The notes: generated by a model not told the origin, from the sequence alone. Counted from the first letter of the stretch, positions 33,026 through 57,588 are shown. The stretch is DNA of 64,000 nt from Acidimicrobiia bacterium (GCA_029863385.1 JAOTVU010000001.1:2476-66475); one strand, 5' to 3'. Made by a program: numbers and translations.

Positions 33026-33339
33026 TGCGATCACACTCCAAACCAAGCCCACCGGACGCTTCACTCTGAACCGCCGGATGCTTTCCTGTTTTGACGGTAC
33101 GACTGCGCTGAAATGCCGACCAGAGGCGAAGGTCAACACTGTGTTTCGAACGCCCCGTCAAGCCCCGATCGAAGGTGGCGCCCGAGGAGCCGACCGTTTC
33201 GATTCGCAGTGCGCCACAAGACGATCCTGCTTACCCCCCCGGCGCGAAAAACGGGGCCGGCCATATGACCGACCCCGCTTTCACGAACCTGTTGGTCTCG
33301 ACCCTACTGATCGGGCAGACTGTGGCCGGCGGCGTCGAT

Positions 33340-35385: not shown

Positions 35386-35433
35386 CACGCCAGTGACATC
35401 AAACCCCGTGACCGCCACGGCCAACCCGTTCCG

Positions 35434-36930: not shown

Positions 36931-37271
36931 GGAAAGACCCCCTTCATAGTCGGATCGTCGTCAGATAGGAATCCCCAACAAACAGGTAGCGAGATCGTGG
37001 TACACCAATCGCAATCAGTGATGGCATCAACGTACGAAGCCGGGCACCCACGGTTCGAATCGACCGTAGACATAGCAACGGGCGAGATGGTAGGGGCGAA
37101 AGTCACACATCTCCAGGTCTTGCGATCTGCGAGAGCGGCGACGGCTTCGACACGATCCTCGTGCACCAGAGGCCACCGCACGATTCATGATCGTTGACGA
37201 CGAGCGTGGGTGCGGTGGCGCTTGTCGTCAGTTTCCTCTGGGCTTGCCTTGTCGGTGTGCTTGCGATCGAC

Positions 37272-37970: not shown

Positions 37971-38055
37971 GAACCCGTTCTACCGGCCCCTCGCAGAACT
38001 CACGAGCCACTTGGCACCCTCCCGTCGGAGATTCCGAACAGAACAGCCTTGCCGA

Positions 38056-38973: not shown

Positions 38974-38976
38974 GTC

Positions 38977-40050: not shown

Positions 40051-40123
40051 GGTATTCCTCCCTTTGGCCCGGGTCGTGTGTGGTCCGCCGACTCGATTCT
40101 TCGGTCCCCGACACCGGGCGGTC

Positions 40124-40897
40124 TTATGTCGTCGTCGAGACCTTCCAGTACCGAACCCGGTTCTCGAGGTACCCGAACAGCTTGGTGAGTCCGATGCCGA
40201 GCAGCGGCAGCGGCAGGATTGCTGCGAGCAGGAAGTCGGTGCGGAACACCGACCCGTACGACGAGATCAGCGCGCCGATCCCGCTCAGGCGGAGGTAGAC
40301 CTCCGCGATCGCCATACCGACCACGCCCCGCCCGATGCCAAGACGTACGCCGGCCATGATGAAGGGAATCGCGGCGGGAACCACGACACGCCGCAGCAGC
40401 CCGAATTCGGTCGACACCCCGAACGCCGTGGCCACCTCGATCAGATCCCGCGGCGCATCTCTCACCCCGGTGTAGGTGTTGATCAGAATCGGGAAGAACG
40501 CGGACAGGAACACGACGATGACCCGACCGGTGAGTCCGAAGCCGAACCAGACGAGAACGAGGGGAACCAGGGCGACGACCGGCAGCGCGTAGAGGGCGTT
40601 GAAGTAGGGGCTGAAGGTTCGGTCCATCAGCGGGTAACGTCCCACGGTCACGCCGATTCCGACGCCGAGCAGCACGGCAGCCGTGAAGCCGAGCGCCAGC
40701 AGGCGGAGGCTCTCGAACAGCGCCGGCAGCAACGAGCCGTCGAAGATGATCGTGAGCAGTGCCGATCCCACCGCCAGCGGCCCCGGGAGCAGCACCGGCT
40801 CGTCGAGGACTCGTGCGTAGATCTCCCAGGTGCCCAGGAAGACCACGGCGAACGCCATGTGCCCGATCCAGAGGCGATCTTTGAGAAACGCTTGCAT
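40124..40897 (-). CDS. ABC transporter permease (NitT/TauT family)
   Basis: EAA-like loop ATAFGVSTEFGLLRRVVVPAAIPFIM. ATG 40897 lies 5 nt after the ATPase stop. The track extension was trimmed. Confidence 0.9.
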   Translation of the reverse strand: MQAFLKDRLWIGHMAFAVVFLGTWEIYARVLDEPVLLPGPLAVGSALLTIIFDGSLLPALFESLRLLALGFTAAVLLGVGIGVTVGRYPLMDRTFSPYFNALYALPVVALVPLVLVWFGFGLTGRVIVVFLSAFFPILINTYTGVRDAPRDLIEVATAFGVSTEFGLLRRVVVPAAIPFIMAGVRLGIGRGVVGMAIAEVYLRLSGIGALISSYGSVFRTDFLLAAILPLPLLGIGLTKLFGYLENRVRYWKVSTTT

Positions 40898-40902
40898 TCC
40901 CG

Positions 40903-41751
40903 TCACCCCACCGCGAGTTGACTGCGTTGGTACTCCAGGTCCTCCCGGAGCATCTGCCAGATCTCCTGGCGGGCTTCGATGAAGCCTTTCTCCGCCCTGA
41001 GGTCGTAGTCCCATCGAGGGCGGGGCAGGTCCACGTCGATGGAGGCTCTGATTCGCCCGGGCCCGCGCGTGAGCACCACCACCCGATCGGCGAGCGCGAC
41101 GGCTTCATCGAGGTCGTGGGTCACGAACATGACGGTCTTGCCCGAGTTCGACCACAGCTTCATCAGTTCTTCCTGCATGAGCTCCCGGGTCTGGGCGTCG
41201 ATCGCGCCGAACGGCTCGTCCATCAGCAGGATCTCGGGGTCGGTGACGAGAGCCCGGGCCAGACCGACGCGTTGCTGCATGCCGCCGGACAACTGGTGCG
41301 GCATCGCGTCTTCGAATCCGGCCAGGCCGACTTTGGTGATGAACTCGCGAGACAGTTGATCGGCGACTCTGGGGTCGGCCTTCCGGATGACGAGCGGCAT
41401 CTTGACGTTGTCGAGAACGGTCTTCCAGGGGAACAGCCCGAAGCTCTGGAACACCATCGCCCGTTCCCGGCCCGGTCCGGTGACCGGGGTTCCGTCGATC
41501 CGGACCTCGCCACCATCGAAGGGTAGAAGACCGGCGACGATCCTCAGAAGGGTGGTCTTTCCACACCCACTCGGACCGATCACCGAGACGAACTCGCCTT
41601 CTTTCAGGTCGAGATCGACTCCGTCGAGTGCCAGGAGCTCCTGGCGCACACCCTTCTTCTCCCAACGGAAATACTTCTGGACACCGGAGATCTGGACTTT
41701 GGCAGGACGCCCACTGCTCGTCTCTGGGCTGGTGTTCACCGTGTTTGGCAT
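40903..41751 (-). CDS. ABC transporter ATP-binding protein (NitT/TauT family)
   Basis: Walker A GPSGCGKTT, signature LSGGMQQRV, Walker B LLMDEPF, H-loop VTHD. Confidence 0.95.
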   Translation of the reverse strand: MPNTVNTSPETSSGRPAKVQISGVQKYFRWEKKGVRQELLALDGVDLDLKEGEFVSVIGPSGCGKTTLLRIVAGLLPFDGGEVRIDGTPVTGPGRERAMVFQSFGLFPWKTVLDNVKMPLVIRKADPRVADQLSREFITKVGLAGFEDAMPHQLSGGMQQRVGLARALVTDPEILLMDEPFGAIDAQTRELMQEELMKLWSNSGKTVMFVTHDLDEAVALADRVVVLTRGPGRIRASIDVDLPRPRWDYDLRAEKGFIEARQEIWQMLREDLEYQRSQLAVG

Positions 41752-41804
41752 CTCGCTCGTCTGTCCCCCCTGGACTCGGATGGCTAGGGCTAGCCTCGCC
41801 GTGA

Positions 41805-41824
41805 GATATGTTATAACTTATATC
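41805..41824. promoter_or_regulatory. AT-rich palindromic candidate GntR operator in divergent promoter region
   Basis: GATATGTTATAACTTATATC with perfect palindromic core GTTATAAC (41810-41817), fitting the GT-Nx-AC GntR/FadR operator rule. It is the only AT-rich patch between the divergent ABC operon and the FAH gene. Confidence 0.35.
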
Positions 41825-41917
41825 ATCCCGCTGCGTCGACCGGCAACACCACCGGGCAGCTGAGCACAGTCAAGTTGAAGAAAACAAGTGGAGAGATGGG
41901 GAAGGAAGGGGACAGCG

Positions 41918-42796
41918 GTGAAGTTGGTCACATTCGAAAATGGTTCGTCGGCTCGGGTTGGCGTGCTCGATGGAGATCTCGTACGCGACGTAACCGCCGT
42001 CGATGACAGTCTCCCCACCAGCCTGTTGGGTGTCGTCACTGCTGCTGACGGCGTGTTGGATCGAATTCGACAGGCGACGAGCGCCGCCCCCGCCGTGGCG
42101 CTCGGCGACGTGACCGTACATGCTCCGCTCCCGACGCCAACCGGTGACGTGATCGCGGTCGGCAAGAACTACCCCGACCATGCGAAGGAATTCGCCGACT
42201 CGGGGTTCGACGCAACCGAGAAGGAGGTGCTGCCCTCGCATCCCATCATCTTCGGGAAGTCCGGGTCGTCCATCATCGGCACCGCGGCTCCGATCGTCAG
42301 CGGCAACGACCCGACGGGGACGACGGACTACGAGGGCGAACTCGGTGTCGTCATCGGACGAGAGGCCCGATCCGTCGATCCGGCCAACGCTCTCGACCAC
42401 GTGTTCGGATTCACGATCATCAACGACGTAACCGCCAGGGAGCTGCAGTCGATGCATGCCCAATGGTTCGTCGGGAAGAGTCCCGACACCTTCTGTCCTA
42501 TGGGTCCGTGCATCGTGACCGCCGATGAGTTCGGCGATGTCGGCTCGGCGTCGCTCCGGACGGTCGTGAACGGCGAGGTCCGCCAGTCGTACGCCCTGGC
42601 CGACATGATCTTCGACATCCCCACCGTCATCGCCACGCTCTCCGCGGTCATGACACTGCGTCCCGGCGTCGTCATCGCCACGGGAACCGGACCGGGTGTC
42701 GGCATCGGCTTCGACCCTCCTCGCTTCCTCCGTCCCGGCGACGTCGTCGACGTGACGGTCGACGGCATCGGCACGCTCTCGAACCCGGTGGTATAG
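41918..42796 (+). CDS. fumarylacetoacetate hydrolase (FAH) family protein
   Basis: GKNYPDHAKE and DYEGELGVVIG metal-binding blocks. GTG 41918 (VKLVTFENG) follows GGAAGGGGA. Confidence 0.9.
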   Translation: MKLVTFENGSSARVGVLDGDLVRDVTAVDDSLPTSLLGVVTAADGVLDRIRQATSAAPAVALGDVTVHAPLPTPTGDVIAVGKNYPDHAKEFADSGFDATEKEVLPSHPIIFGKSGSSIIGTAAPIVSGNDPTGTTDYEGELGVVIGREARSVDPANALDHVFGFTIINDVTARELQSMHAQWFVGKSPDTFCPMGPCIVTADEFGDVGSASLRTVVNGEVRQSYALADMIFDIPTVIATLSAVMTLRPGVVIATGTGPGVGIGFDPPRFLRPGDVVDVTVDGIGTLSNPVV

Positions 42797-42803
42797 GCCC
42801 ATC

Positions 42804-43874
42804 ATGACCGTGACCGGATGGGAAGGCTGGGCGGACCGGTGGTCGGAGTCCCCGACCACCGCCGTGACCGGCCCGGTGATCGACGTGCACTCACACCTGA
42901 AGGTGCCCGGGGCGGCGGCGTTGGCGATGGAGCACTTCTCTCCGGAGCTGGATCCCCGCTCGCTCTATTCGACCGACCAGACGAACGCCCTCAATCGTGC
43001 ATACCACGAGTGTGTCCACGATCGTTTCACGGAACCGGCGACGCGGATCGAGGACATGGAGATCATGGGTGTCGATGTTCAGGCGATCGCGCTCGCCCCG
43101 CCCCACTACTTCTACTGGCTCGACCGGGCGACAGCCACACAGATCACGTCAATGCAAAACGATGCCATCGCAGAGATCGTCGCCTCGCATCCGCAACGGT
43201 TCTGGGGCGTGGGAACCCTCCCGATGGCGCATCCGGCCGACGCGGTGAAGGAAGCCGAGCGGCTCCGAAACGAACTCGACATACGGGCCATCGAAATCGG
43301 CACCGACGTGGTCGGGGTCGACCTCGACGACCCGAAGTTCGATCCGGTCTGGGAAGTCCTCGCCGAGCTGCGAATCGTCGTCATCCTGCACCCCGCCGGT
43401 TTCACCGAAGGTCGCCGGCTGTCGGACTACTACCTGGTGAACGTGATCGGTCTGCCACTGTCCTCAACGCTTGCCGTTACCCGACTCATCCTCGGCGGAG
43501 TGTTCGAGCGGCACCCGGGGTTGCGCATGCTCGTCGTGCACGGAGGCGGCTATCTCCCGTTCTATTCGGCACGAACCGATCACGCCTTTCGACATCGACC
43601 GGAGATGCGACAGCACATCGATCGACTCCCGTCGGAGTATCTGTCGAACCTGTGGTTCGACTCCACCGTGTTCTCGCCGGCGCTCCTCGGACTGCTCGTC
43701 GAGCAGTACGGGGCTGATCGGGTGCTCCTCGGGACCGACTACCCCTTCGACATGGGGCAGGGCAATCCCATCGATTTCATCGCGGCAGCCGGTCTGACCG
43801 ACGACCAGCGGGCGCAAGTCCTTGGCCGGAATGCAGAGGAGCTGTTCGGCCTGACGGCGATCCGTCCAGGCTGA
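42804..43874 (+). CDS. amidohydrolase-2 (ACMSD/LigW/LigI-like) family metal-dependent hydrolase or decarboxylase
   Basis: IDVHSHL (HxH) near the N-terminus, VILHPAG, VVHGGG, and C-terminal GTDYPFD. TIM-barrel amidohydrolase pattern. Confidence 0.85.
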   Translation: MTVTGWEGWADRWSESPTTAVTGPVIDVHSHLKVPGAAALAMEHFSPELDPRSLYSTDQTNALNRAYHECVHDRFTEPATRIEDMEIMGVDVQAIALAPPHYFYWLDRATATQITSMQNDAIAEIVASHPQRFWGVGTLPMAHPADAVKEAERLRNELDIRAIEIGTDVVGVDLDDPKFDPVWEVLAELRIVVILHPAGFTEGRRLSDYYLVNVIGLPLSSTLAVTRLILGGVFERHPGLRMLVVHGGGYLPFYSARTDHAFRHRPEMRQHIDRLPSEYLSNLWFDSTVFSPALLGLLVEQYGADRVLLGTDYPFDMGQGNPIDFIAAAGLTDDQRAQVLGRNAEELFGLTAIRPG

Positions 43875-44072
43875 AGAACGAGGAAGGCGACGAGCTGGCC
43901 TCCTGGGCGACTCCTCGATCTCAGGCAAAGATGTCGCGGCGACGATGACGCCCTCGTCACCGTTGCTACGGACCCATGGTTCGGATTCCCGTTGCCGTCC
44001 CGGTTGCTGTCCTGTGCCACGTCTGGTGGTGGCTTCCTTCGGCAAGATGTGCTCTGGCCTGGGGAAACGTTG

Positions 44073-44145
44073 CTCCGGGGGTGAGGCTCGAACTCACGAC
44101 CCACTGATTAACAGTCAGTTGCTCTGCCAACTGAGCTACCCCGGA
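44073..44145 (-). tRNA. tRNA-Asn (GUU), CCA not encoded
   Basis: Hand fold: TCCGGGG acceptor, GCTC/GAGC D stem, ACTGA-CTGTTAA-TCAGT anticodon arm, GTGAG-TTCGAGC-CTCAC T arm, CCCCGGA-G 3' end. Confidence 0.9.
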
Positions 44146-44323
44146 TTGGCGAATCGCCATGATACCAAGTTCCTTCGGCTCCCCGATCACCTTTTTTGAA
44201 CGGCGAGCGAATCCCCCTGCGCCCAGAATTCGAGCATTTGTTCTCGACTGCTGGAGTGCGGGGCGCCAACCTGATCGTCAGCGGATTCGGGGCCGCAACA
44301 TTTCACCTTCGGGTAACTCGACC

Positions 44324-45709
44324 TTACCGGGGGCGATGGCGCTCGATCACCTCCGGCGAGATCCGCTTCAGCTCGCCGTCCGAGAACGGTGCCAGCACAT
44401 CCCACGCCACATCAAGGGTCTCCTCGATCGAGCGCTCGTGCTCCTGGTGGAGGAACCGACGCTCGAACGCCTCGGCGAAACGCAGGTAGCGGCGGTCGTC
44501 GTCGGACAGGCTGGCCTCGCCGATGATGGCCACCAGCCGGCGCAGGTCACGACCCTGGGAGTAGAAGGCGTAGAGCTGGTCGGAGAGCTGACGGTGGTCG
44601 CCGCGGGTCTTGCCGTCGCCGATCCCGGCGTTCATCAGGCGGCTGAGGCTGGGCAGGACGTCGATCGGGGGATCGACGCCCACTCGGTGGAGTTCCCGGG
44701 ACATCACGATCTGGCCCTCGGTGATGTAGCCGACGAGATCCGGGATGGGGTGGGTGATGTCGTCGTCGGGCATGGCCAGCACGATCAGCTGCGTCACCGA
44801 ACCCGGCCTGTCCCGGATCCGGCCGGCCCGCTCGAAGAGACCGGCGAGGTCGGTGTACATGTAGCCCGGGTAGCCCCGTCGACCCGGAATCTCCTCCCGG
44901 GCCGTCGACACCTCACGCAGCACCTCGCAGTAGTTGGTGATGTCGGTGAGGATCACCAGCACATGCAACCCGTGGACGAAGGCCAGGTACTCGGCCACCG
45001 TGAGCCCAAGCCGAGGCGTGAGGAGGCGCTCGATGGGCGGATCGTCGGCCCGATTGACGAAGAGCACGGTACGGTCGAGCCGTCCACTGTTCTCGAAATG
45101 CCGGCGGAAGAAGCTGGCTTCCCGTTGGGTGATCCCCATGGCGGCGAAGACGACGACGAAGTCCTCGCCGGTCCCGACCACTCGGGCCTGGGTGGCGATC
45201 CGAGCGGCCAGCTCGCCGGCTGGCAGGCCGAAGCCGGAGAAGATCGGAAGCTTCTGACCCCGGACCAGGGTGTTCAGACCGTCGATGGCCGAGATCCCGG
45301 TTTCGACATATTCCGACGGGTAGCTCCGCATGGCCGGGTTGATGGGCAGGCCGTTGACATCGCGGAACTCTTCCGGCATGGGGGGTGGTCCGCCGTCGAT
45401 CGGCCGACCGGAACCGTCGAGGATGCGGCCAAGTAGACCGCGGCCGACACCGAGCCGGGCAACATCCTGGCCCAGGCGAACCGTTGTGGTGGCCAGCCCG
45501 AGCCCCCGGGTTCCCTCGAATACCTCGATCACGGCCCGGTGGTCGTCGACCTCGAGAACCTGACCGGCCCGCACCCCGCCGTCGGCCGCCAGGACCTCCA
45601 CCACCTCACCGAGATGGGCGACGGCCGCCCGCTCGACGACGATGAGGGGGCCGGCGATGTGGGTCACGGTACTGAGCTCGTAGGTGAACAGCCCACCGGC
45701 GTGTCTCAT
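44324..45709 (-). CDS. atpB: A/V-type ATPase subunit B
   Basis: 461 aa. Blocks [22 protein letters not shown] and ITEGQIV. ATGA overlap with atpA. The 140-aa R/G-rich track extension was rejected. Confidence 0.95.
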
Positions 45710-47451
45710 CGACCCTGTACCTCCCCTTCGATTCTCTCGATCAGCTCGGTCGCCAATCGGCCGGCCTGGTCGGGTGGCCAGCTCCGCATACGGGCCACCG
45801 CTTCGACGGTGCCGGCCGGAAGGGGGCGCCCCCGGTCGGCATCGGCTTCGGCGGCCTCGACCAATTCCTCGTGCAGATGGCGGATGACCCGGAGCATCCA
45901 GTACTGCTTGGTGAGTGGGCAGAAGGCATCGACCTCGTCGAACGCCGATTGTTGCAGGAAGTCCTCCCGCAGGGTCTGACCGGTCTGGAAGGTGACGAGC
46001 TCGGCCGGGGCGAGAGCCTCGACGCCGAGCAGTTGGACGATATTCTGCAGCTCCTCCTCCTGGGCCAGCAGGCCCAGCGCCCACTGCCGCTGGTCCTCCC
46101 AGTCGGCTGCGACGTGCTCGTCGAACCACGGGCCCAGCCGATACAGGGTATAGCTGCGGTTCCAGTTGATGGCCGGGAAGTGGCGACGGCGGGCCAGATC
46201 GCTGTCGAGCGACCAGAACGTACCGGCCAGACGGAGGCTGTACTGGGTGACGGGCTCGGAAAGGTCACCACCCGGTGGCGACACGGCGGCAACGATCGTG
46301 ATCGACCCGTCCCGGGGGCGGCCACCGAGGGAGGTTGTGGCCCCGGCCCGCTCGTAGAACTCGGCCAGGCGGGACGGGAGATAGGCCGGGTAGCCCTCCT
46401 CACCCGGCATCTCCTCCAGCCGGCTCGACACCTCCCGAAGTGCCTCGCCCCAGCGGCTGGTGGAATCGGCCAACAGGGCCACGTCGTAGCCCTGATCACG
46501 GTGATACTCGGCGATGGTCATGGCGGTGTAGATCGAGGCCTCCCGGGCCGCCACCGGCATGTTCGAGGTGTTGGCGATGAGGATGGTTCGCTCCATCAGG
46601 GACGCACCGGTCCGCGGATCCCGCAGACGGGGGAAATCCTCGAGCACGTCGGCCAGCTCGTTGCCTCGCTCGCCGCACCCGACATACACAATGACATCGG
46701 CGTCGCTCCATTTGGCCAGGGTCTGTTCGTGAACGGTCTTGCCCGTCCCGAATCCGCCCGGGATGGTGGCGCTGCCGCCTCGGGCCACGGGAAACAGGGT
46801 GTCGACCACACGCTGACCGGTGGTGAGGGGCACCGTGGGGTCGAGCCGGCGGGCCACCGGCCGGCTCTGGCGCACCGGCCACCGGGACAGCATGGCGATC
46901 GGCTGGTCGTCGACCCAGACCACCGGATCGACAACCGTTGCTCTGGCCGACCCGATCGCAGTGACCGTTCCGGCCAGCGGCGAGACGACCCGATGCTCGA
47001 TGGCGGCGGTCTCGGGAGTGGTGGCCACCACGTCGCCGACGTCGACCCGGTCGCCGACCGAGACCTGCGGGGTCACCTCCCAGACCCGATCCCGGTCCAG
47101 AGCGGGAGCCTCGACGCCCCGGGCGATGAAGGGTCCACCCGACCGCTCGCCGTCACCGGCCGAGAGCGTGGTGAGAGGCCGCTGCACACCGTCGAACACC
47201 TTGCCCATCAGGCCCGGTCCAAGCTCGACGGTGAGCGGCCCGCCGGTGTGGTGGACGGGAGAGCCGACGTTCAGCCCGCTCGTCTCCTCGTAGACCTGGA
47301 TCACCGCCCGGTTGTCGCTCAACCTGATCACCTCGCCGATCAGGTTCTGCTCACCGACCCGAACCACGTCGTAGAGCTGAGCCCGATCGAGACCGGTGGC
47401 CTCCACAACCGGGCCGGCGGCCCGAACGACGCGCCCGGGGGTGGCCGTCAT
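45706..47451 (-). CDS. atpA: A/V-type ATPase catalytic subunit A
   Basis: 581 aa. Walker [42 protein letters not shown] overlaps at both ends. Confidence 0.95.
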
Positions 47452-47804
47452 GTCCCGGCCTCTTGGGGGAAGGAGATGTGGTAGCCGATGGCCCGCTCCA
47501 GCATTGCTGCGATTCGGGCCCGGTGGGTCCCGGCGTCGGCTCGCTCGAGACCTGCCGGGAGCGGCATCACGATCGGTTCGGTCGAGCGCTCGTAACGCTC
47601 CTGTGTTGCGGCTTCGAGCTCGGCGTGGAAGGGGGCGTAGACCCCGGCAATGCCCCGCTCCCCGCCACCGATCAGGGCGTCCACGATCGCCTCCGCCGCC
47701 GCGGCATCGGCCGCCTCCTGGACGACAACCCCGGCCAGGCGGAAACCGCCGGCCAGCTCCGGCGGCACCACCACCGTCAACAGTCCCGTCGGCGCCGTCA
47801 CCAT
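47448..47804 (-). CDS. atpF: A/V-type ATPase subunit F
   Basis: 118 aa. GFRLAG motif and the operon position immediately upstream of A. Confidence 0.8.
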   Translation of the reverse strand: MVTAPTGLLTVVVPPELAGGFRLAGVVVQEAADAAAAEAIVDALIGGGERGIAGVYAPFHAELEAATQERYERSTEPIVMPLPAGLERADAGTHRARIAAMLERAIGYHISFPQEAGT

Positions 47805-48901
47805 GGGAAGAGATCCTCCTCGACCTCGTTGAGCGGCAGCCGGTGGACCAGCGCCCGTCCGACGAGGCGGATGTTACGGGCTTCGCACTCCTTGGCCGAG
47901 GCGTAGGCGATGGGGATGGAGATCCCCAACGGATCGCCCCGGCCGAACAACCCGATGGCTCGACCGGCCAGTGCCCGTTCGAGCCTTCCGGCCAGACCGG
48001 CGAGATCGTCATCGCTGCTCCATTGCTCGAAGGCCCCCGACCAGCCCTCCGGAAGCCGGTGACCGGCCAGAGCGGCAACCAACTGCGCCCTGTCGGACGC
48101 CCGATGGACCTCATCCAGAACCCGGGGACGGAGCGTACCCCCCACTAGGAGGGTGTCCTCGGGGTCGGTCGGGGCCGGTCCCTCGTCGTCGCGCCGGCGC
48201 AGGGTCGAGAGCAGGTTGAGCAGGTCGATCTCGCTCCTGAGGATCTCCTCCAGGTCGCTTCCTTCCCAGTCGCCGAGGGCGTCGTCGACCGACTCGGCCC
48301 AGGCTCGCTGGAGCACCTCCTCCAGCACCATTGGATCGTTGCTGGCCGCGTAGCGCGGCCACTCGGCCAGCAGCCGTCGCGAGGTGCGGCGCGACGGGAG
48401 ATCCCAGGCCACCATCAACTCGATGGCCGATCTCAGCGACGGCTGGGAGGCCAGCTCGGCCAACGGGCCGGCACCGACTGTTCCGGCCGGAACAACCAGC
48501 GAGTCGAGTTCCCGATAGACGGTCGGGCGGGCCGTGGTGCGAACGATCGTCACCAGGTTGTGGCGGTCCCAGCGGCCGAGCAGCAACTCGATCCCGGCCG
48601 CCGCCCGCCCCTCGTAGAACCGGCGTAGGTCGCCCAGCGAACGCACGAGGTGATGCCGCACCGTCTCGTCGATCCGCCGCAAGGGGCCTCGGTGGACCAG
48701 GGCCCGCTCGAGATCCCGCTCATAGGCGGTGGAGCGCAGCGCCCCCAGCATGCGGTCGGCGCTTCCGGCGGCGTACAGCTCCCTGAAGTCCTTGCCGTCG
48801 AGCAGCTGGGCCCGCCGGGCTCGCAGGCGGGCATTGCCGTAGTCGAACCCGGATCCGGGCACGGCCCCACGCAAGGCGATCGGCCTCGAATTGTTCGTCA
48901 C
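47798..48901 (-). CDS. atpC: A/V-type ATPase subunit C (eukaryotic d-like)
   Basis: About 367 aa, all-helical. DYGNARLRARRAQLL N-terminus typical of subunit C. GTG 48901 overlaps the E stop (GTGA). The rest of the 719-aa track ORF was rejected. Confidence 0.75.
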   Translation of the reverse strand: MTNNSRPIALRGAVPGSGFDYGNARLRARRAQLLDGKDFRELYAAGSADRMLGALRSTAYERDLERALVHRGPLRRIDETVRHHLVRSLGDLRRFYEGRAAAGIELLLGRWDRHNLVTIVRTTARPTVYRELDSLVVPAGTVGAGPLAELASQPSLRSAIELMVAWDLPSRRTSRRLLAEWPRYAASNDPMVLEEVLQRAWAESVDDALGDWEGSDLEEILRSEIDLLNLLSTLRRRDDEGPAPTDPEDTLLVGGTLRPRVLDEVHRASDRAQLVAALAGHRLPEGWSGAFEQWSSDDDLAGLAGRLERALAGRAIGLFGRGDPLGISIPIAYASAKECEARNIRLVGRALVHRLPLNEVEEDLFPW

Positions 48902-49488
48902 GTCGCCCCCTCGTCCGAGAGTTGACCGGCGACCAGCTGTCGGAGCAACCGGTCGGCCCTCTCCAGGCGAGACTCGAAGGTGTTGTGCAGCACGCGGCCG
49001 TCGGCGGTTCTGAGCTCGAGCCCACCCCAACGGGGTGAACTCGCCGTCACCTCGACCCCGGCCCGGTCGCGCTCGGCCAGCAGTGATTCCACCAGTTCGA
49101 CGTCGGCCGGATCGACGTCGACCCGGGTGGCGTCGGGGAGCAGGGACAGCGCCTCGTCGAGCAGGCGAGCCAGGATCGTCGGGTACGATCCTGTTCCTCG
49201 AAGTGAGGACAGCCGGGTCCGCAGATCGACCAGGGCCTCCTGGTAGGCGGTTTCGACCGCCTCGAGTGAGGCCCGCCGGGCCTCCAGCCGTGCTCGATCG
49301 ACAAGCCGAGCCGCCTCCTGCTCGGCCACCCGGGACCGACCTGCGGCCGCGTCCTGTTCGACCCGGGTCGCCTCGGCCCGTGCTTTGTCCTCGAGCGCGG
49401 CCACCCGCCGGGCGGCCGTGTCCTCCAACTCGCCGATGACGTTCTCGCCGTCGGATTCGATGCTGGCCAGGATGGCGTCGAGTGCCAC
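48898..49488 (-). CDS. atpE: A/V-type ATPase subunit E (peripheral stalk)
   Basis: 196 aa. Long N-terminal charged coiled coil plus a globular C-terminal domain. GTG start abuts the K stop. Confidence 0.8.
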   Translation of the reverse strand: MALDAILASIESDGENVIGELEDTAARRVAALEDKARAEATRVEQDAAAGRSRVAEQEAARLVDRARLEARRASLEAVETAYQEALVDLRTRLSSLRGTGSYPTILARLLDEALSLLPDATRVDVDPADVELVESLLAERDRAGVEVTASSPRWGGLELRTADGRVLHNTFESRLERADRLLRQLVAGQLSDEGAT

Positions 49489-49710
49489 TCAGCCTCCAAG
49501 AAGCACGATGATCATGGCCGCCACTGCGAACCCGAGGATGACCAGGGTCTCGGGAATGGCGACCAGCAGGATGATGCGGCCGGTCAGTTCGGGATTCTCG
49601 GCGATGGCGCCGATCCCGGACGAGCCGATCCTGCCCTGTGCGTAGCCTGTGGCCAGGGCGGCCAGGCCAACTGCAATGCCGGCTCCGATAGCCAATAGTC
49701 CGGCTTCCAT
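49489..49710 (-). CDS. atpK: A/V-type ATPase proteolipid subunit K (c), single hairpin
   Basis: 73 aa. Two TM helices joined by the ENPE loop, carboxylate in IPETLVILGF. Strong SD AAGGAGGA. Confidence 0.9.
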   Translation of the reverse strand: MEAGLLAIGAGIAVGLAALATGYAQGRIGSSGIGAIAENPELTGRIILLVAIPETLVILGFAVAAMIIVLLGG

Positions 49711-49808
49711 GGGATCCTCCTTTGTCGGTTTGGTCTTCTGAAGTGACCGGTCGATGTGACTGGTCGTTGTACTTGGTCGGTTCGACTGTTGGTGTGGGTC
49801 GGTGGATG

Positions 49809-51722
49809 TCAGGAGTCGGGGTTGAGCTGCTCGACCGGTGGGTCGGCGTTGTTGTCGCCGCCGAACGCGCTGAACTCCTCACCCCCTTCTTCATAGAACT
49901 TGCTGAAGAACTCGACGTAGTGGAGCCGCAACGCCTGGATGGTTGGGCTGAAGACACCGAGGGCGAGATTGAGGGTGTGGAACAGGGTGCCGATCAGTAT
50001 CCCCACCAACAACGGGGCGGTGGCTCCGAGGTCGTTGGCCACCCTGGCCAGGAACACCGAGGCCAGCCCGATGGCCGCGATCCGCAGATACGAGAGCACA
50101 TTGCCCAATGCCCCGATGAGTTCGAGCGGGCCCATGACCAGACCCATCGCTCCCCCGCTGGCCATCATCACCACCAGCCCGATGACAACGGCCACCATAC
50201 CGGGGGTGACAAAACCGGCCGGCAGTTGCTCGGCCACCGCCAGCACGATCAGGAACGAGCCGGACAGGGCAACCAGCAGGGCGATGCGCTCGACGAGCTT
50301 GCTGGACTGCGCAGTAACCGCCGCCCTCCAGATCCCGAGTAGCACCCCGAGCACGACATGGACGGCCCCGATACCGAGGGACAGTACGAGCAATGGCTCG
50401 AGGGCCTCCTCCCGGTTGACCCAGATCGGCTCGAGGTCGAACAGGCGGTGGCCGAGATCGCCCAGGAACTCGCCGTAGATCACGCCCCAGACCATCGACC
50501 ACACGGCGGCCAGGACCAGGATGCGGCTCACGTCTCGCACCGCCCCCGGTCGGTTGCCGAAGCGGCGCCCGACCACCAGTGCGATCACCAGCAGGGCCGC
50601 GCCGTAGGCGATGTCGCCGAGCATGATGCCGATGAAGAGCGGCATGAAGGCCAGCATCAGCAGTGTCGGGTCGAACCCGCCGTAGACGGGGATCGCCAAC
50701 AACCGGAGGAAGAGCTCGAACGGCCGGGCCACAGCGGGGTTGTCGAGCAGTACCGGCGGGCTGTCCGACTGGCCGGGCGGGCTGTCGAGCAGCACCGTCG
50801 AGCCTCCCGCCGTTTCGGCCAGCGCCGCCCTCACCTCCGCCAGCCGTGGGGTTGGCACCCAGCCGCAGACGACGAAGGTGTGGGAGGTGGCCCCCATCAG
50901 CCGAACCGCGGCCAGCTGGTCCATGCGGGCCGCCAGCTGGCCGCTGGCCACCACCCAGCTGCCGTGGGGGGCAACCAGCCGCTGTATCCTGTCCCGCCGG
51001 TCCTCGAGCTCGGCCGGCAGCTCGTCCAGCCGGCGCTGCATCGCGGCCAGAGCCCGGCGGAAGGGGAGCCCGCTGAAGCGTTGCGGCAGACGGACCCGGC
51101 TCAGCTGCTCCCGGCCCAGCAGCGAGGCCACGTCCTGGGACCGGCGCTGGGGGAACACGATGAGGGCGCCGATGGTGTCGGCGTCAACCCGATCGGAGAT
51201 GATCTCGAAGTTCCCGTCCAGCAATTCACCCAGCTCGACGTCGAGCGCGGCCAACACGTCGGGAAAGTGGCTGTCGATCAAGACCGCAGAAGTCTCGTAT
51301 CCCTCGGTGATGGTCGCCTCCGGGAGCAGGGGGAGCAGCCGTCCAAGGGCGGCGATGTGTCGAGGCAGGTTGTCCTGCTCGGCCGTCAGTTCCTCCATCT
51401 CGATCACCAACCGCTCGATTTCCGGACCGACCGCATCGAGTTCTCGTCTGATCTCGTCGAGATCGATCGTGGGAGCGGGCGACGGCACCGGCGGTGGTTC
51501 GGGCAGCAGGGCAAGCAGCGAGTCGATGCGGGCCCGGAGCAGGCGGGCCTCATGGAGTTCGGCCAGCTGCTCGTCGTCGACCCCGAGCGGCGGGAGGTGA
51601 ACCTCGTGATCGGCGGTGACATCGATGAGATGGACGACGTGGAGGGCGTGCAGCCGTGCCACCACCTCATCGAGGTGGCGACGGTGGCCGATCACGTGGA
51701 CCTTCGTCATGTCGACGAGCAT
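49809..51722 (-). CDS. atpI: A/V-type ATPase subunit I (a)
   Basis: 637 aa. Soluble coiled-coil N-terminal half and a polytopic C-terminal half with conserved Arg in LSYLRIAAIGLAS. Confidence 0.9.
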   Translation of the reverse strand: MLVDMTKVHVIGHRRHLDEVVARLHALHVVHLIDVTADHEVHLPPLGVDDEQLAELHEARLLRARIDSLLALLPEPPPVPSPAPTIDLDEIRRELDAVGPEIERLVIEMEELTAEQDNLPRHIAALGRLLPLLPEATITEGYETSAVLIDSHFPDVLAALDVELGELLDGNFEIISDRVDADTIGALIVFPQRRSQDVASLLGREQLSRVRLPQRFSGLPFRRALAAMQRRLDELPAELEDRRDRIQRLVAPHGSWVVASGQLAARMDQLAAVRLMGATSHTFVVCGWVPTPRLAEVRAALAETAGGSTVLLDSPPGQSDSPPVLLDNPAVARPFELFLRLLAIPVYGGFDPTLLMLAFMPLFIGIMLGDIAYGAALLVIALVVGRRFGNRPGAVRDVSRILVLAAVWSMVWGVIYGEFLGDLGHRLFDLEPIWVNREEALEPLLVLSLGIGAVHVVLGVLLGIWRAAVTAQSSKLVERIALLVALSGSFLIVLAVAEQLPAGFVTPGMVAVVIGLVVMMASGGAMGLVMGPLELIGALGNVLSYLRIAAIGLASVFLARVANDLGATAPLLVGILIGTLFHTLNLALGVFSPTIQALRLHYVEFFSKFYEEGGEEFSAFGGDNNADPPVEQLNPDS

Positions 51723-52105
51723 CGGCCCTCCTCCGTCGGGATCTGCACCACGAGAGCCACCATGTCATCAAGCCGCTCGGTCAGGCGGGGCCGCAGGGTC
51801 TCCAGCAGGCGGTCGGCCTCGTGCCGACCCTCTCGCCGGATCCGGTCGGCCTCCTCGCCGACGGTGGCAAGCCGCTCACGGTGGTGGGCCTCGGCCTGCT
51901 CGACTCCCCGTTTGCGAGCCTCGACGACAGCGGCGTCGGCTGCGGCCTGGGCCTCGGTCACACGGGCTTCGGCCGCCGCCTTGGCCTCCTCGATCCGGCG
52001 GACCATCTCCCGCTCCGCCTCGCGTATCGTGGCCAGCATTGTCGCCACCCGAGGCTGCTCGACAGCGCCGGGCAGACCGTCGTTGCGCCGGGTCGCGTCG
52101 TTCAT
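51707..52105 (-). CDS. A/V-type ATPase peripheral-stalk protein (G/H-like coiled coil)
   Basis: 132 aa, Ala/Glu/Arg-rich heptad-like sequence (IREAEREMVRRIEEAKAAAEARVTEAQ..). ATGA overlap with the D stop. Embedded in a 369-aa track ORF whose upstream part is rejected. Confidence 0.55.
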   Translation of the reverse strand: MNDATRRNDGLPGAVEQPRVATMLATIREAEREMVRRIEEAKAAAEARVTEAQAAADAAVVEARKRGVEQAEAHHRERLATVGEEADRIRREGRHEADRLLETLRPRLTERLDDMVALVVQIPTEEGRCSST

Positions 52106-52749
52106 CGTCGGGCCCCCTGGGCGAGGCGAGCCGCCCGCTTTCGGGCCGATCGCTTGAGCCGGAACCGGTCCTGGCGCTCGCGTTCGTCGAGCACGGATCT
52201 GATCCAGGCACAGTCGCTCCGGAGTCCTGGGATCACCATCGTTTCGAGGGCGTTGACTCGCCGGGTTGTGGTGCGAACCTCGTCCACGAGTCGCCGCAGC
52301 CGTAGCTCGTACCGGGCGTATTCGAGGAATCGGTCGATGGCCACCTCGAAGCCTTTGGCGGCCTCGTCGATGCGAGGGCTGCTGCCGGCCATCGAGTAGC
52401 CGCGGCCGGTGCGGGGCCGGCCGGCCGGTTCGGCCAGGATCTGCACGATACGCACACCCATGACCGTCGACGTCCGGGTCGTGGTCAGCAGCTGACGCCC
52501 ACCGGCACCGGCCGCCGATCCCACCTGCTCGGGACCGTCGAGGGCCTCGGCCAGAGCGAGGGCCCTCCTCCCGTTGGCAAGCGCCGCGTCGAGGGCCTCG
52601 CTGCTGGTGAGGATGTCGTCCCCGGTCTCCCGCAGCTCCTTCATCAGCTGCTCTCGTTTCTCGCGAAGAACATCGCGGCCGCGAACCGCCATGGCGATCT
52701 GCGCGTTGCGGGCCAGCAGCTCCGATCGGGTTGCGGTGACTCGCTCCAT
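52102..52749 (-). CDS. atpD: A/V-type ATPase central-stalk subunit D
   Basis: 215 aa. N-terminus RVTATRSELLARNAQIAMAVRGRDVLREKREQL and C-terminal RERQDRFRLKR are typical of subunit D. Confidence 0.9.
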   Translation of the reverse strand: MERVTATRSELLARNAQIAMAVRGRDVLREKREQLMKELRETGDDILTSSEALDAALANGRRALALAEALDGPEQVGSAAGAGGRQLLTTTRTSTVMGVRIVQILAEPAGRPRTGRGYSMAGSSPRIDEAAKGFEVAIDRFLEYARYELRLRRLVDEVRTTTRRVNALETMVIPGLRSDCAWIRSVLDERERQDRFRLKRSARKRAARLAQGARR

Positions 52750-52751
52750 CG

Positions 52752-52892
52752 TCAGTCCATCCCCACGCAGCCGACCGCGGCGTCGATGGGGCCGTTGTCG
52801 TCAAAGCCAGCGGCACCGGGCGCCCATACTGCAGCGCCGGTCACGATCGTGTCGAGGATCGCCATACCCCGTCTGGAGATGAGGTTCTTCAT
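52752..52892 (-). CDS. small ORF (46 aa) ending 2 nt upstream of atpD; hypothetical
   Basis: MKNLISRRGMAILDTIVTGAAVWAPGAAGFDDNGPIDAAVGCVGMD. G/C-biased third codon positions, GAGGTG about 10 nt upstream of the ATG, no recognisable family. May instead be untranslated leader. Confidence 0.25.
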   Translation of the reverse strand: MKNLISRRGMAILDTIVTGAAVWAPGAAGFDDNGPIDAAVGCVGMD

Positions 52893-53107
52893 GAGTCTCA
52901 GCACCTCGACCAACGTCGTCCTACCAGGCACCATCCAGTCCAAGGACAGATATGACGGAACCCGCCTCCTTGTCTCATCCAAGCAAGCTGGGCGAAGACC
53001 CCCAAGAGGCTTAGGTCCTGATCCGTCCGCCTGATCGTTGTGGGGCTCGCACGTGTCGAAACCACGGCGGCTCGACCCACTCCCCCGACGGGCGCCCGGC
53101 CGGCTCG

Positions 53108-54331
53108 TTAGTCGAGGTAGTCGCGGAGACGGTCGCTACGAAGCGGGTGGCGAAGTTTGGCCAGCGTCTTCGACTCGATCTGACGGATCCGCTCCCGGGT
53201 CACGCCGAACTCCTTGCCGACCTCCTCCAGGGTACGGGGCCGGCCGTCGTCCAAGCCGAATCTCAGGCGAACGACCTCGGCCTCCCTTTCCGACAAATCG
53301 TCGAGTACGTCCTTGACCGCCTGCTCCAAGAGTTTTCGGGCCGCCACGTCGAGCGGTGCGGCGCCCTGGTCGGCGATGAAGTCGGCCATCGACGTGTCGT
53401 CCTCGTCGCCGACCGGGCTGTCGAGCGACAGCGGATCCTGGGAGGCGATGCGCAGGATCTCCTCCACCTTCTCCGGCGGAAGATCAACTTCCTTGGCCAG
53501 CTCGGGCACGGTGGGGTCACGCTCCAGGCGGGACCCGAGCATGCGTTGTGCCCGCAGCACCTTGTTGATCGACTCGACCATGTGCACCGGCACGCGAATG
53601 GTGCGGGACTGATCGGCGATCGCCCGCGTGATGGCCTGCCGGATCCACCAGGTGGCGTAGGTCGAGAACTTGAAGCCCTTCGTGTAGTCGAACTTCTGCA
53701 CCGCCCGCATGAGCCCCAGGTTTCCCTCCTGGATCAGGTCGAGAATCTGTACGCCCCTGCCAACATGACGCTTGGCGATCGACACCACAAGCCGCAGATT
53801 GGCCGCGGTCAGATCCTGGGCCGCAGCCTCGCCGTCGGCTACCGCCTGCCGGTGGCGGCGCTGCTGGTCGGTCGACATGGTCTGCCACTCGCCGCTTTCG
53901 ATCAGCTCGGTCATCCGGTCGGCCGCCGCCGAGCCGGACTCGATCCTCTTGGCCAGCGACACCTCTTCAGCTGCGCTGAGCAGCGGAACCTTGCCGATCT
54001 CCTTGAGGTACATGCGAACCGGGTCCGACGAACCGCTGGCCCGGGCCATGGCGGCCGCTGCGGCCTGAGCGGGATCGACGGTACGACGTCGGCGGCGGAC
54101 CCGGTAGCCGTCGAGTTCGCTGACGTCCACCGGCTCCTCGTCGAACGGGATCGAGTTGGCGGCCATGAAATCACGGAGCTCTTCCAATACACCAGGGCTC
54201 AATTCGACCCGGGGCATAACGGCAACCACGTCCTCCATGTTGAGGGGACGGCCGGCTTTGGCCCGCAGCAACAACCGAGGCGCGTACTCCTCGATCGTCG
54301 ACCACGTCGATTGCGCCGGCTTCTCGGTCAA
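53108..54331 (-). CDS. rpoD: primary RNA polymerase sigma-70 factor
   Basis: Regions 2-4 are intact ([56 protein letters not shown]; [23 protein letters not shown]). TTG start overlaps the dnaG stop (TTGA). Confidence 0.95.
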
Positions 54332-56124
54332 CTCTGCTCCTCGCCTTCCGGGGCCTCAATCCAACCTAGCAAGTCTGCTATGGCCCGTGCCTGTCGGGAT
54401 GGGTCGCGGACCTCCTCCAGCTTGAGCCGCAGCCAGGTGTGTTCGCGGAAGATGTCGGCCTGCTCGGACGTCGGGGCACCGGCCAGCGCCGCCTTCCAGT
54501 CCGACATGAGACGTTCGAGGTACGGTTCCCACAATCGGGCTGCCACTTCGATCGGCGTGGCCATAGTCTCCTCCACCGACAGCCGCTGCACCAACTCCCC
54601 CACTTCGGGCCCACCGGCGTCGATCACCTCGTGCAGCTTCTCGTGACGGCCCAGGAGATCGAACACGGTGGCGGCCAACTCGTCGGTGAACAACTCCGGC
54701 ACGACGAGATCCGCCAGCGATGAGCTGTCCTGAGCGGCGAGCTTCAATGCTTCGAGCTCCGGGCCCTCCCGCAGGATCGGCCGTGCGATCGACCCTGACG
54801 ACGGCCCGGGCCCTGTCGACGCGAACGACGCCGGCTGCCGGGCCGACGCCGAGCGATTCCCGAGCTGGGTCCGGACGAGATCGACGTCGATCCGACAGCG
54901 GGTGGCGACATCCATCACATATTGATCGCGGACCAGCGGGTCAGGGTGCTCGGCAATCATCCCCAGCGCCATGTCGGCGGCCCGGGCCCGACCCTCGGCC
55001 GATCCCAGGTCGGCGGCCTCGAAAACCCGCTCCACCCTGAATTCGAGGAACGGACGAGCCCCCGAAACCGCCTTGCGCAGCCGCTCCGGGTCCTGCTGGC
55101 CGAGTTCGCCGGGGTCGACGCCGGGGGGCAGATCAGCCACCGCCACGTCGAGATCATGAGCCCGCTCCCACTCGTAGAATCGAGCGGCGGCGTTCTGGCC
55201 GGCGGCGTCGGCGTCGAACGCCAGCACCACCCGGCGCGCGAATCGACGCAGGAGCTTGACATGGTCGTCGGTCAAGGCGGTTCCGCAGGTGGCAACGGCC
55301 CGGGCCATGCCGGCGTTGAAGAAGGCGATCACGTCGGTGTACCCCTCGCAGACCACGACCTCGTCGGCCTCCACGACCTGGGTCTTGGCCCAGTTCAGAC
55401 CGTAGAGGAGGCGGCTCTTGGCGTAGACGGTCGACTCGGATGAGTTCTTGTATTTCGGCCCTTCCGCTCCCGGCATGTTACGACCCCCAAAGCCGACAGC
55501 GTTGTCCTGGGCGTCGAATACGGGGAACATGATGCGGCTCCGGAACGCGTCCTGTTGACGCCCACGCCGGTTGACGAACCCGAGACCCGAGTCGATGAGG
55601 TCCTTGTCCGACAGGTTCAATGAACGGGCCAGGAGATCCCAATCGTCACCGGCCCACCCGATCTTGAACCGTCGCACGGTCTCGCCGTCGTAGCCCCGCT
55701 GGCGCAGATAACTGCGGGCGGCTCCGGCGTCGGACGCCGACAGGAGTCGGTCGTGATAGAAGTCGACCGCCTGAGCCACCGCATCCTGGAGACGGGACTT
55801 GCGTCGACGGTTTTCGCCCTCGTTCGAGTCGGTGTAGCGCAGGGAGATGTTGAACTTGTGGGCCAACCACTCGACAGCGCCCACGAAGTCGAGCTGCTCC
55901 TTCTCCCGGACAAAGGTGATGACGTCGCCACCCACTCCACAGCCGAAGCAGTAGTAGACCCCCTCCTCGTGGTTGACGGAGAACGACGGGGTCTTCTCGG
56001 CGTGGAATGGGCACAGCCCGGAAAAGCGGCGTCCGACCCGGCGAAGCTGCGTGTACTGGGTGACTACCGCGACGATGTCGCTGTCATCTCGAACCCGGGC
56101 CACATCCTCGTCGACAATCCCCAC
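54328..56124 (-). CDS. dnaG: DNA primase
   Basis: Zinc ribbon [35 protein letters not shown] and [11 protein letters not shown]. Confidence 0.95.
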
Positions 56125-56271: not shown

Positions 56272-57588
56272 TCAGGACAGGTGATCCTGCAGCCATCCGA
56301 CGACGTCGGTGATGGGCAGGCGAACCTGCTCCATACTGTCGCGTTCGCGGATGGTGACCGCCTTGTCGTCGAGGGAGTCGAAGTCGAACGTGATGCAGTA
56401 TGGGGTGCCGATCTCGTCCTGACGGCGATAGCGCTTACCGATCGCCTGGGTCTCATCGTAGTCGACCATCCAGTGCGGCTGGAGCGAGGCCAGCAACTCA
56501 CGGGCCGGTTCGGTGAGTTCCGGCTTCTTGGACAGGGGCAGGACGGCCACCTTGTAGGGTGCGATCCGATGATGAAGCCGCAACACCGTGCGGGTCTCGT
56601 CGTTGACGATCTCCTCATCGTAGGCGGCCATCAGAAACGCCATCATTGCCCGGGTCGCCCCGGCCGCCGGTTCGACGACGTGGGGAACGTACCGTCGGTT
56701 CTCGGCCTGATCGAAGTACTCGAGCTTCTGACCGGAGTGTTCGGCGTGCTGGTCGAGGTCGTAGGAGCCCCGGTTGGCGATTCCTTCCAGCTCGTCCCAT
56801 CCCCAGGGGAACAGGAACTCGACGTCGCTCGTGCCCGAGGAGTAGTGACTGAGCTCGTCGGCGTCGTGTGGCCGCAGGCGCACCTTCTCGGCCGGGATGC
56901 CGTGATCGATGTACCACTGCATCCGTTCGGCGCACCAGTATTCGTACCACTGGTCGGACTCCTCCGGTGGCACGAAGAACTCCATCTCCATCTGTTCGAA
57001 TTCCCGGGTCCGGAACACGAAGTTGCCGGGGGTGATCTCGTTGCGGAAACTCTTGCCTATCTGGGCGATACCGAACGGCGGCCGCTTGCGTGATGTGTTC
57101 AAGACGTTGGCGAAGTTGATGAACATGCCCTGGGCCGTCTCGGGCCGCAGGTAGGTGACCGCGCCCTCGTTCTCGACCGGCCCGGAGTGGGTCTTGAACA
57201 TGAGGTTGAAGTGACGGGGCTCGGTCAGCCGGCCCGACTCGCCACAGGTGGGGCAGGTGTTCGGGTCCTCCATCTTGTCCTGGCGGTGACGGGCCCCGCA
57301 GTTGCGACAGTCGACGAGCGGATCGGTGAAGTTGGCCAGATGTCCGGAAGCCTCCCAGACCGCAGGCGGTGACAGGATCGACGCGTCGATTCCGACGACA
57401 TCGACTCGGAGCTGCACCATCGATCGCCACCACGCGTCCTTCACATTCCGCAGCATCAGGACGCCGACAGGACCATAATCATACGTTGACCGGAAGCCGC
57501 CGTAGATCTCGACCGAAGGGAAGACGACACCCCGCCGTTTGCAGAGGTTGACAATCTTGTCGAACAGGTCCGGATCGGGAGTTTCCAT
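56272..57588 (-). CDS. glyQS: glycine--tRNA ligase (homodimeric class II)
   Basis: 438 aa. Motif 2 FRNEITPGNFVFRTREFEQMEMEFF and an anticodon-binding C-terminal domain. Confidence 0.95.
   Translation of the reverse strand: METPDPDLFDKIVNLCKRRGVVFPSVEIYGGFRSTYDYGPVGVLMLRNVKDAWWRSMVQLRVDVVGIDASILSPPAVWEASGHLANFTDPLVDCRNCGARHRQDKMEDPNTCPTCGESGRLTEPRHFNLMFKTHSGPVENEGAVTYLRPETAQGMFINFANVLNTSRKRPPFGIAQIGKSFRNEITPGNFVFRTREFEQMEMEFFVPPEESDQWYEYWCAERMQWYIDHGIPAEKVRLRPHDADELSHYSSGTSDVEFLFPWGWDELEGIANRGSYDLDQHAEHSGQKLEYFDQAENRRYVPHVVEPAAGATRAMMAFLMAAYDEEIVNDETRTVLRLHHRIAPYKVAVLPLSKKPELTEPARELLASLQPHWMVDYDETQAIGKRYRRQDEIGTPYCITFDFDSLDDKAVTIRERDSMEQVRLPITDVVGWLQDHLS

Follow-up and report, generated by a model that had tools for sequence, protein, structure and literature searches.

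The closest described relatives of the operon presented here are A/V-type rotary ATPases whose genes end in D. The V/A-ATPase of Thermus thermophilus (atpG-I-L-E-C-F-A-B-D) is the sole ATP synthase of its host, has a single-hairpin c-ring and is encoded with D last. Archaeal operons of the Methanosarcina mazei type read ahaH-I-K-E-C-F-A-B-D, and the Na+-V-ATPase of Enterococcus hirae (ntpFIKECGABD), a bacterial enzyme found beside F1Fo, also has D in the last position; its NtpK is a duplicated four-helix proteolipid with one site. Here we describe an A/V-type (A1Ao) ATPase operon in a 64,000-nt stretch of DNA, hereafter the window, to which all unassigned coordinates refer. The window lies on contig C49 (78.8 kb) of an Acidimicrobiia metagenome-assembled genome (MAG), named G000 in this work (GCA_029863385.1; 5.04 Mb in 293 contigs, 91.9% complete, 5.6% contamination). 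The operon begins with D and appears to be a horizontally acquired insert between rpoD and a tRNA-Asn gene, rather than a component inherited at that locus.

The nine-gene operon and its closest described relatives

Nine consecutive open reading frames (ORFs) were identified on the minus strand at 44324-52749, in the order D-H/G-I-K-E-C-F-A-B, with no frameshifts, no internal stops and no subunit lost. All nine exceeded the gathering score of their Pfam A/V-ATPase family in a profile search, H/G and F only narrowly (Table 1). The H/G protein also reached 24 bits with the AhaH model TIGR02926, which is below the cut-off, and an H/G-like gene fills the same position in all D-first relatives. On the strength of these matches the locus is assigned as an A/V-type (A1Ao) ATPase with all nine subunits, namely A, B, D, F, C(d), E, G/H, I(a) and K(c). 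The predicted build comprises an A3B3 head, a D-F shaft, a C socket, E-H/G peripheral stalks, an I stator and a K ring. A preliminary description, made from the sequence alone, had listed nine A/V-ATPase genes with D first and had called almost all of their junctions translationally coupled; the intact ORFs and family matches bear out the gene list, and each overlap reads exactly as claimed. Specifically, ATGA overlaps are found at D/H, F/A and A/B and a GTGA overlap at E/C, the TGA stop of K abuts the GTG start of E with no gap, and C/F and H/I overlap by 7 and 16 nt, respectively. The sole true intergenic gap within the operon is the 98 nt from I to K. For subunit I, an alternative ATG at 51710 would yield 633 aa and an ATGA overlap with H, as in the relative L120.

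Concerning functional residues, subunit A carries the P-loop GGFGTGKT at 232, GERGNE at 260 and DSTSRW at 329, and it contains the A-specific 'non-homologous' insert (PF16886 ATP-synt_ab_Xtn, 61 bits). No GxxxxGK[ST] P-loop was found in residues 141-175 of subunit B, at the start of its nucleotide-binding domain. Subunit I has a SYLR motif with Arg547, the essential membrane arginine of the stator, and the carboxylate of K (E54, in a PET motif) is present in 18 of 18 aligned sequences. The enzyme is therefore complete in its subunits, with its catalytic residues intact, and is apparently functional.

The best solved relatives of A are the A subunit of Pyrococcus horikoshii (1vdz) and those of Thermus (3a5c) and E. 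hirae (3vr2). The T. thermophilus enzyme (3a5c, 5y5x, 6qum) gave full-length matches with A (E = 3e-190) and I (E = 6e-37, 5y5x_N), while the E. hirae enzyme (3vr2, 8wci) matched A with E = 3e-186. In Thermus, however, the enzyme is the sole synthase, whereas the window enzyme would be a third rotary ATPase and has D first. E. hirae resembles the window in having Na+-ligand-like residues in K, but the window K is a 73-aa hairpin in a D-first operon, in contrast to the duplicated K and last-placed D of E. hirae. The archaeal operons (loci L035-L098, from Methanomicrobiales and Methanosarcinales) share with the window the nine subunits, the single-hairpin K and the H-I-K-E-C-F-A-B order, and the A subunits of Methanomicrobiales are 56-59% identical to that of the window. 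They differ in that D is last and in that the window host is a bacterium with F1Fo; additionally, helix 1 of the window K has a Gln where the Archaeoglobi and Methanolobus examples have a Glu. Finally, Chloroflexota operons (L032, a MAG; L034, Caldilineaceae; L049, Chloroflexia) hold the same nine genes and the TxxxQ/PET pattern of K, with identities to the window of 68-77% for K, 61-68% for B and 46-51% for D, but unlike the window they place D last.

The D-first order and the Acidimicrobiia clade

Gene order was compared among 80 species-representative A/V loci. A-B-D was adjacent in 64, D was located further downstream in two (haloarchaea), 13 were unreadable, and the only D-first locus belonged to an Acidimicrobiia MAG. 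In the clade that includes the window, D-H-I-K-E-C-F-A-B was found in 12/12 readable operons (the window, L031, L118, L120-L123, L126, L127 and L129-L131), and two incomplete contigs fit it as well. Moving D from the end of the canonical H-I-K-E-C-F-A-B-D to its front gives exactly this order, a cyclic permutation. Phylogenies of both A and B place the window in this strongly supported Acidimicrobiia clade, with a support of 99/100 and a long stem (0.56) in the careful A tree and of 100 in the B tree. The D-last Chloroflexota join it as the nearest relatives outside the Acidimicrobiia in the B tree (100) and in a quick A tree (88-98), while the careful A tree does not decide between Chloroflexota, Coriobacteriia, Chlamydiota and a paralogue from Methanoregulaceae as the sister group. 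We claim neither a donor phylum nor an archaeal origin.

The D-first rearrangement appears to have arisen once, at the base of the Acidimicrobiia-associated lineage. The preliminary description had proposed a rearranged operon: the D-first order is indeed real and non-canonical, but it is a trait of the whole clade and did not arise in this genome. The location, on the other hand, is not shared as the order is, since the neighbourhoods of L120-L123 and L126-L131 are all different. The permutation might have come about by tandem duplication followed by trimming, or by a circular intermediate that re-opened between B and D. The order could serve as a synapomorphy for recognizing the Acidimicrobiia A-type lineage, and it indicates that the complex is maintained though D is not translated after A and B. 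Our literature search returned no paper on a V-type ATPase in Acidimicrobiia and nothing relevant on gene order. The P-loop GGFGTGKT was also considered as a peculiarity of the clade and was ruled out, as it is found in 118/120 clade members but also at 26 other loci.

Probable insertion between rpoD and tRNA-Asn

Both genes named by the preliminary description as neighbours of the operon, rpoD and tRNA-Asn, were located at its flanks, with the operon on the 5' side of the tRNA. We found the orthologous locus via DnaG and read it from seven congeners. The dnaG-rpoD pair is conserved in 7/7 and tRNA-Asn follows rpoD in 6/6 readable cases, the contig of G004 ending inside rpoD; identity at the flanks is 77-98% for rpoD (amino acid) and 90-96% for tRNA-Asn (nucleotide). 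Nucleotide alignments gave a rpoD-to-tRNA spacer of 36 bp in G009, 68 bp in G016 and 92 bp in G002, with no operon remnant in any of the three, and of about 1.6 kb in G019, G007 and G003. The spacer of the congeners is thus empty or differently filled, and the operon is absent from it. Homology to G019, G002, G003 and other congeners stops at ~44196-44203, just upstream of the conserved promoter region of the tRNA, and restarts at ~53096-53112, at the rpoD stop; these breakpoints delimit a segment of ~8.9 kb that is missing from the congeners.

The spacer is a recurrent insertion site and behaves as an insertion hotspot, because a 453-aa ORF occupies it in G019 and a gap of the same size is found in G007 and G003. 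The ORF of G019 (L111, 13115-14476) has an HNH-like C-terminus (HHLHEW...CGQHHHAVHEGGW).

Occurrence of the operon is patchy. The 60 relatives searched, made up of 24 congeners, 12 further members of the family and 24 further members of the order, yielded no A subunit of the window type. Four of the 60 hold a different true A subunit, 45-49% identical (genome search and tblastn), which forms an outgroup in the trees. An even sample of the class had window-type A subunits in 7/400 genomes (68-72% identity), all of them outside the order of the window. When prokaryotes were scanned with one genome per species, the Acidimicrobiia MAG carrying L031 was the best match (A 67%, B 73%, K 88%), followed by Chloroflexota and Methanomicrobiales with 54-59%. 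In a large protein collection at least 120 metagenomic clusters were at least 66% identical to A, the top ones reaching 94%, 93% and 78%, and the few named clusters among these matches are Acidimicrobiia. The copy at L118 has 94% identity in A and 97% in B, and its nucleotide identity of 88% extends over exactly 44317-53019 and nothing beyond. It is flanked by a ferredoxin/NrfD/cytochrome c cluster without a nucleotide match anywhere in G000. The empty sites of the congeners, together with the patchy occurrence (0/60 and 7/400), support the suggestion of the preliminary description that the operon is a horizontally acquired module.

Vertical inheritance would instead require an ancestral operon at this locus, repeatedly lost elsewhere and retained here. 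Codon usage and GC that match the host, nearest homologues that are all Acidimicrobiia, and the loci of G004 and G012, which end early and are unreadable, would agree with such a history. It is nevertheless very unlikely in our view, given that the type is present in 0/24 congeners, 0/12 family members and 0/24 members of the order as well as in no same-order genome of the class sample, that the congener spacers of 36-92 bp are clean, and that the closest copy (A 94%) stands in an unrelated context. Examination of composition revealed no foreign signal: the GC of the operon is 0.689, compared with 0.673 for the genome (sd 0.019), GC3 lies at the 75th percentile and the codon score is z = +0.31. 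An unremarkable composition fits a donor of similar composition, such as another Acidimicrobiia, and the immediate donor was most likely a member of that class and not an archaeon. The possibility of an assembly or binning artefact, with the operon of another organism misjoined into C49, comes to mind for a MAG of 293 contigs and 5.6% contamination. It would, however, need two precise joins within a spacer of <100 bp, both flanks on the 78.8-kb contig are syntenic with the congeners, and codon usage fits the genome, which makes this explanation extremely improbable.

We therefore consider it highly probable that an apparently functional A-type ATPase was inserted here as a cassette from an Acidimicrobiia donor, with an inherited D-first order and an auxiliary role. 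According to this account, the operon and its 270-nt leader would have entered as a self-contained cassette of 8.7-8.9 kb, which was inserted in the short rpoD/tRNA-Asn spacer after the split from the sampled congeners and brought the D-first order with it. The enzyme would then work beside F1Fo and an N-ATPase, as a second ATP synthase or ion pump with a different coupling, which may be useful in saline sediment. Several points weigh against this account. Composition gives no evidence for the transfer and no date for it. The ORFs tested at 27-44 kb and next to the operon include no mobility gene, neither an integrase nor a transposase, and the insert is not bordered by a persuasive target-site duplication. 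When the operon was gained within the genus is only loosely bounded, because the closest congeners by DnaG, G004 (94% identity, 73% complete) and G012 (93% identity, 81% complete), have contigs that end at the locus and are unreadable there. Additionally, the contigs that carry the F1Fo and N-ATPase genes (C231 and C187) are assigned to the same organism through binning.

A 9-bp direct repeat, CCTGATCGT, occurs at 44270-44278 and 53030-53038, just outside the transferred segment. With ~0.1 chance matches expected it is at chance level (about 1 in 10) and was not accepted as an att site; it may be a coincidence or a microhomology used at insertion. A tRNA-linked island mobilized by an integrase was also rejected as a description of the locus, as the operon lies on the 5' and not the 3' side of the tRNA, no integrase is present and the 9-bp repeat is the only candidate. 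As regards other members of the clade, L127 (G350:C90) has a tRNA-Val at 3221-3294, on the same strand and ~120 nt past B. A tRNA beside the D-first operon is thus seen in 2/12 loci, which may be chance.

The leader upstream of D is presumed to hold a promoter or 5' untranslated region. Rfam matched only the tRNA in this region and nothing in the leader, a consensus scan found no sigma-70 promoter in it, and no terminator-like site was detected in either intergenic flank of the operon, all five matches being within coding sequence. At ~52985-53015 (minus strand) the motif AAGCCTCTTGGGGG(N)CTTCGCCC is shared by the window and L118, and AAGGGTCTTTCG(A/G)CCC is found in L120 and L121; the shared motif might form a small hairpin or act in regulation. 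A 46-aa ORF at 52752-52892 (minus strand, ATG at 52892, MKNLISRRG...), which stops 2 nt short of the ATG of D, was rejected as a conserved tenth gene: L118 keeps only the MKNL start, followed by indel divergence, and nothing is shared with L120-L123.

Table 1. Features of the window at and around the ATPase operon, with the evidence for each.
Feature	Position	Strand	Evidence
tRNA-Asn(GTT), conserved flank	44072-44145	-	ARAGORN; Rfam 68.6 bits
Segment missing from congeners, ~8.9 kb	44204-53095	.	Nucleotide homology breakpoints
Non-catalytic subunit B, 461 aa	44324-45709	-	NF003235 (V-type subfamily) 695 bits; ATP-synt_ab, ATP-synt_VA_C
Catalytic subunit A, 581 aa	45706-47451	-	NF003220 (V-type subfamily) 776 bits; ATP-synt_ab_N, ATP-synt_ab_Xtn, ATP-synt_ab, ATP-synt_VA_C
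Subunit F, 118 aa	47448-47804	-	PF01990 ATP-synt_F 24.2 bits (cut-off 23.5)
Subunit C (d/AC39 rotor-socket), 367 aa	47798-48901	-	PF01992 vATP-synt_AC39 144 bits
Subunit E (peripheral stalk), 196 aa	48898-49488	-	PF01991 vATP-synt_E 47.5 bits
Subunit K (c-ring proteolipid), 73 aa, single hairpin	49489-49710	-	PF00137 ATP-synt_C 68.9 bits
Subunit I (stator a-subunit), 637 aa	49809-51722	-	PF01496 V_ATPase_I; NF004430 300 bits, full length
Peripheral-stalk subunit H/G, 132 aa, coiled coil	51707-52105	-	PF16999 V-ATPase_G_2 30.1 bits (cut-off 28)
atpD/ntpD, central-stalk subunit D, 215 aa, first operon gene	52102-52749	-	PF01813 ATP-synt_D 150 bits; TIGR00309 132 bits (cut-off 72)
270-nt leader, presumed promoter or 5' untranslated region	52750-53019	-	88% nucleotide identity to L118 reaches 53019 and ends there
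rpoD (principal sigma factor), conserved flank	53108-54331	-	Sigma70 r1.2, r2, r3, r4
dnaG	54328-56124		
Class II aminoacyl-tRNA synthetase (glyQS of the preliminary description)	56272-57588		

On the 3' side of tRNA-Asn, the ~17 kb at 27076-44069 have no counterpart in the 2.6 kb that separate the same landmarks in G019. This region encodes a subtilase, a P450, a NUDIX/phosphatase protein, a PQQ-repeat protein, a GntR regulator, an ABC uptake system, a FAH hydrolase and an amidohydrolase, and no integrase was found in it. GC is lower at 35-38 kb (0.61), and the ORF at 35434-36930 has an atypical codon usage (z = -2.3).

Companion ATPases and the coupling ion

A search for an F1Fo atp operon elsewhere in the genome led to a canonical one on C231, where beta (746 bits), gamma (316 bits), alpha and a were detected without internal stops. 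A second operon, at ~381-7293 of C187, encodes an N-ATPase in the order beta-epsilon-AtpQ-AtpR-a-c-b-alpha-gamma; its best models are the 'alternate F1F0' families TIGR03305 and TIGR03323, along with TIGR03165 and TIGR02230. The c subunit of this N-ATPase has the full Na+ pattern, with E in helix 1 and ESTxxY in helix 2. Only one V_ATPase_I gene is present in G000. Because F1Fo and the N-ATPase are also encoded in the genome, the A-type enzyme is placed as a predicted third, auxiliary rotary ATPase; of the two roles that the preliminary description had left side by side, auxiliary to F1Fo or replacing it, the first stands and the second does not. A ring of single-hairpin K subunits, each with one carboxylate, would work at a high ion-to-ATP ratio, which would make ATP synthesis feasible, as in Thermus and archaea. 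By this c-ring stoichiometry argument the A-type enzyme could have taken over from F1Fo as ATP synthase. We find such a replacement barely credible, as the F1Fo alpha, gamma, beta and a genes of C231 are free of internal stops, F-type beta is found in all 60 relatives, and F1Fo beta is kept in 5/5 other D-first carriers tested.

The combination of enzymes is not new. In the part of ProAD (PMC11738941) drawn on here, F and A types occur together in 890 genera and F, A and N types in 42, rotary ATPases that share a genome mostly have different predicted ion specificities, and an ion-pumping role is presumed for N-ATPases; the same part documents F + A + N genomes and does not describe the D-first order or the Acidimicrobiia clade. 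In our own data, four Methanomicrobiales loci (L035, L041, L045 and L052) have two adjacent A-type operons, one of them in the Chloroflexota/Acidimicrobiia subfamily. This pairing is consistent with the multiple A-ATPases in Methanomicrobiales of ProAD. A very distant, compact V-type operon, C-I-K-F-E-A-B-D, the kind to which the 45-49% identical A subunits mentioned above belong, was observed in some congeners (L124 on G001:C8, L125 on G033:C5, G012 and G022), in which I is only 425-484 aa, the P-loop reads GGFGEGKT and a universal-stress-like gene comes next.

The residues of K were inspected for the coupling ion. Helix 1 holds T21-x-x-x-Q25 and helix 2 holds P53-E54-T55, both retained throughout the D-first clade, and the TxxxQ/PET pattern is also found in the Chloroflexota relatives and in related Methanoregulaceae copies. 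The Na+ motif as quoted in PMC4715464 has Q or E in the first helix and, in the second, E or D together with S or T, and Q25, E54 and T55 (plus T21) fit it. As regards the complete ligand set of Mulkidjanian et al. (2008), which ProAD uses, K has no Tyr at E+5, the sequence there being ETLVIL, and because of this absence Na+ coupling is plausible and not established. Na+ or promiscuous Na+/H+ coupling of the K ring is a plausible prediction. Overall, the best guess is an auxiliary role, as a synthase or as a pump, with coupling to Na+ or of a mixed kind, and as to direction and ion the scales hang about level.

A narrower alternative, which differs from the account given above only in direction, is a dedicated ATP-driven ion pump that never synthesizes ATP and serves salt or pH homeostasis, for instance by extruding Na+. 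The genome already has an F1Fo synthase, the Q...ET motif of K is compatible with Na+ binding and the E. hirae enzyme is a Na+ pump, all of which speak for this alternative. It competes, however, with an N-ATPase already in the genome that has the full ESTxxY Na+ motif and is presumed to be an ion pump, and pumps of the E. hirae type use a duplicated four-helix K and not single hairpins. Moreover, even the E. hirae enzyme can synthesize ATP (PMC12018189). On balance we regard a dedicated pump as possible but unlikely, and return to an auxiliary enzyme whose direction is left to either side.

The locus provides a well-bounded case in which a whole nine-subunit bioenergetic machine would have moved as one cassette while the empty site was kept in sister species, and it may be useful for studying the spread of rotary ATPases and the reasons for which some bacteria retain three of them. 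Relative to the literature searched, there are two modest additions, namely the D-first permutation as a marker of an Acidimicrobiia lineage and an insertion site that is precise and lacks an integrase. Current understanding is unchanged, as bacterial A-type ATPases, their transfer and F + A + N combinations are already documented. It is a textbook case of operon-level horizontal transfer and an ordinary kind of event, since A/V-type enzymes are already considered to pass into Bacteria often (PMC10656485). A more far-reaching picture can be drawn, which we offer as a speculation that is improbable in its entirety: an undescribed, Acidimicrobiia-specific A-type lineage would move from one order to another as an 8.7-kb cassette that brings its own promoter and has no linked mobility gene, the permutation would have been left behind by a circular or tandem-duplicated intermediate, and a recent landing in the hotspot would have provided Na+-coupled synthesis in saline sediments.

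Finally, the N-ATPase b gene with its 3' end and the alpha ORF with its 5' end overlap a short tandem repeat at ~2730-2930 of C187. One frame of this repeat encodes HRDPDEHRDTGE repeats and the other VTLTSTVTRVSTVT repeats, so the true start of alpha is probably located downstream of it.

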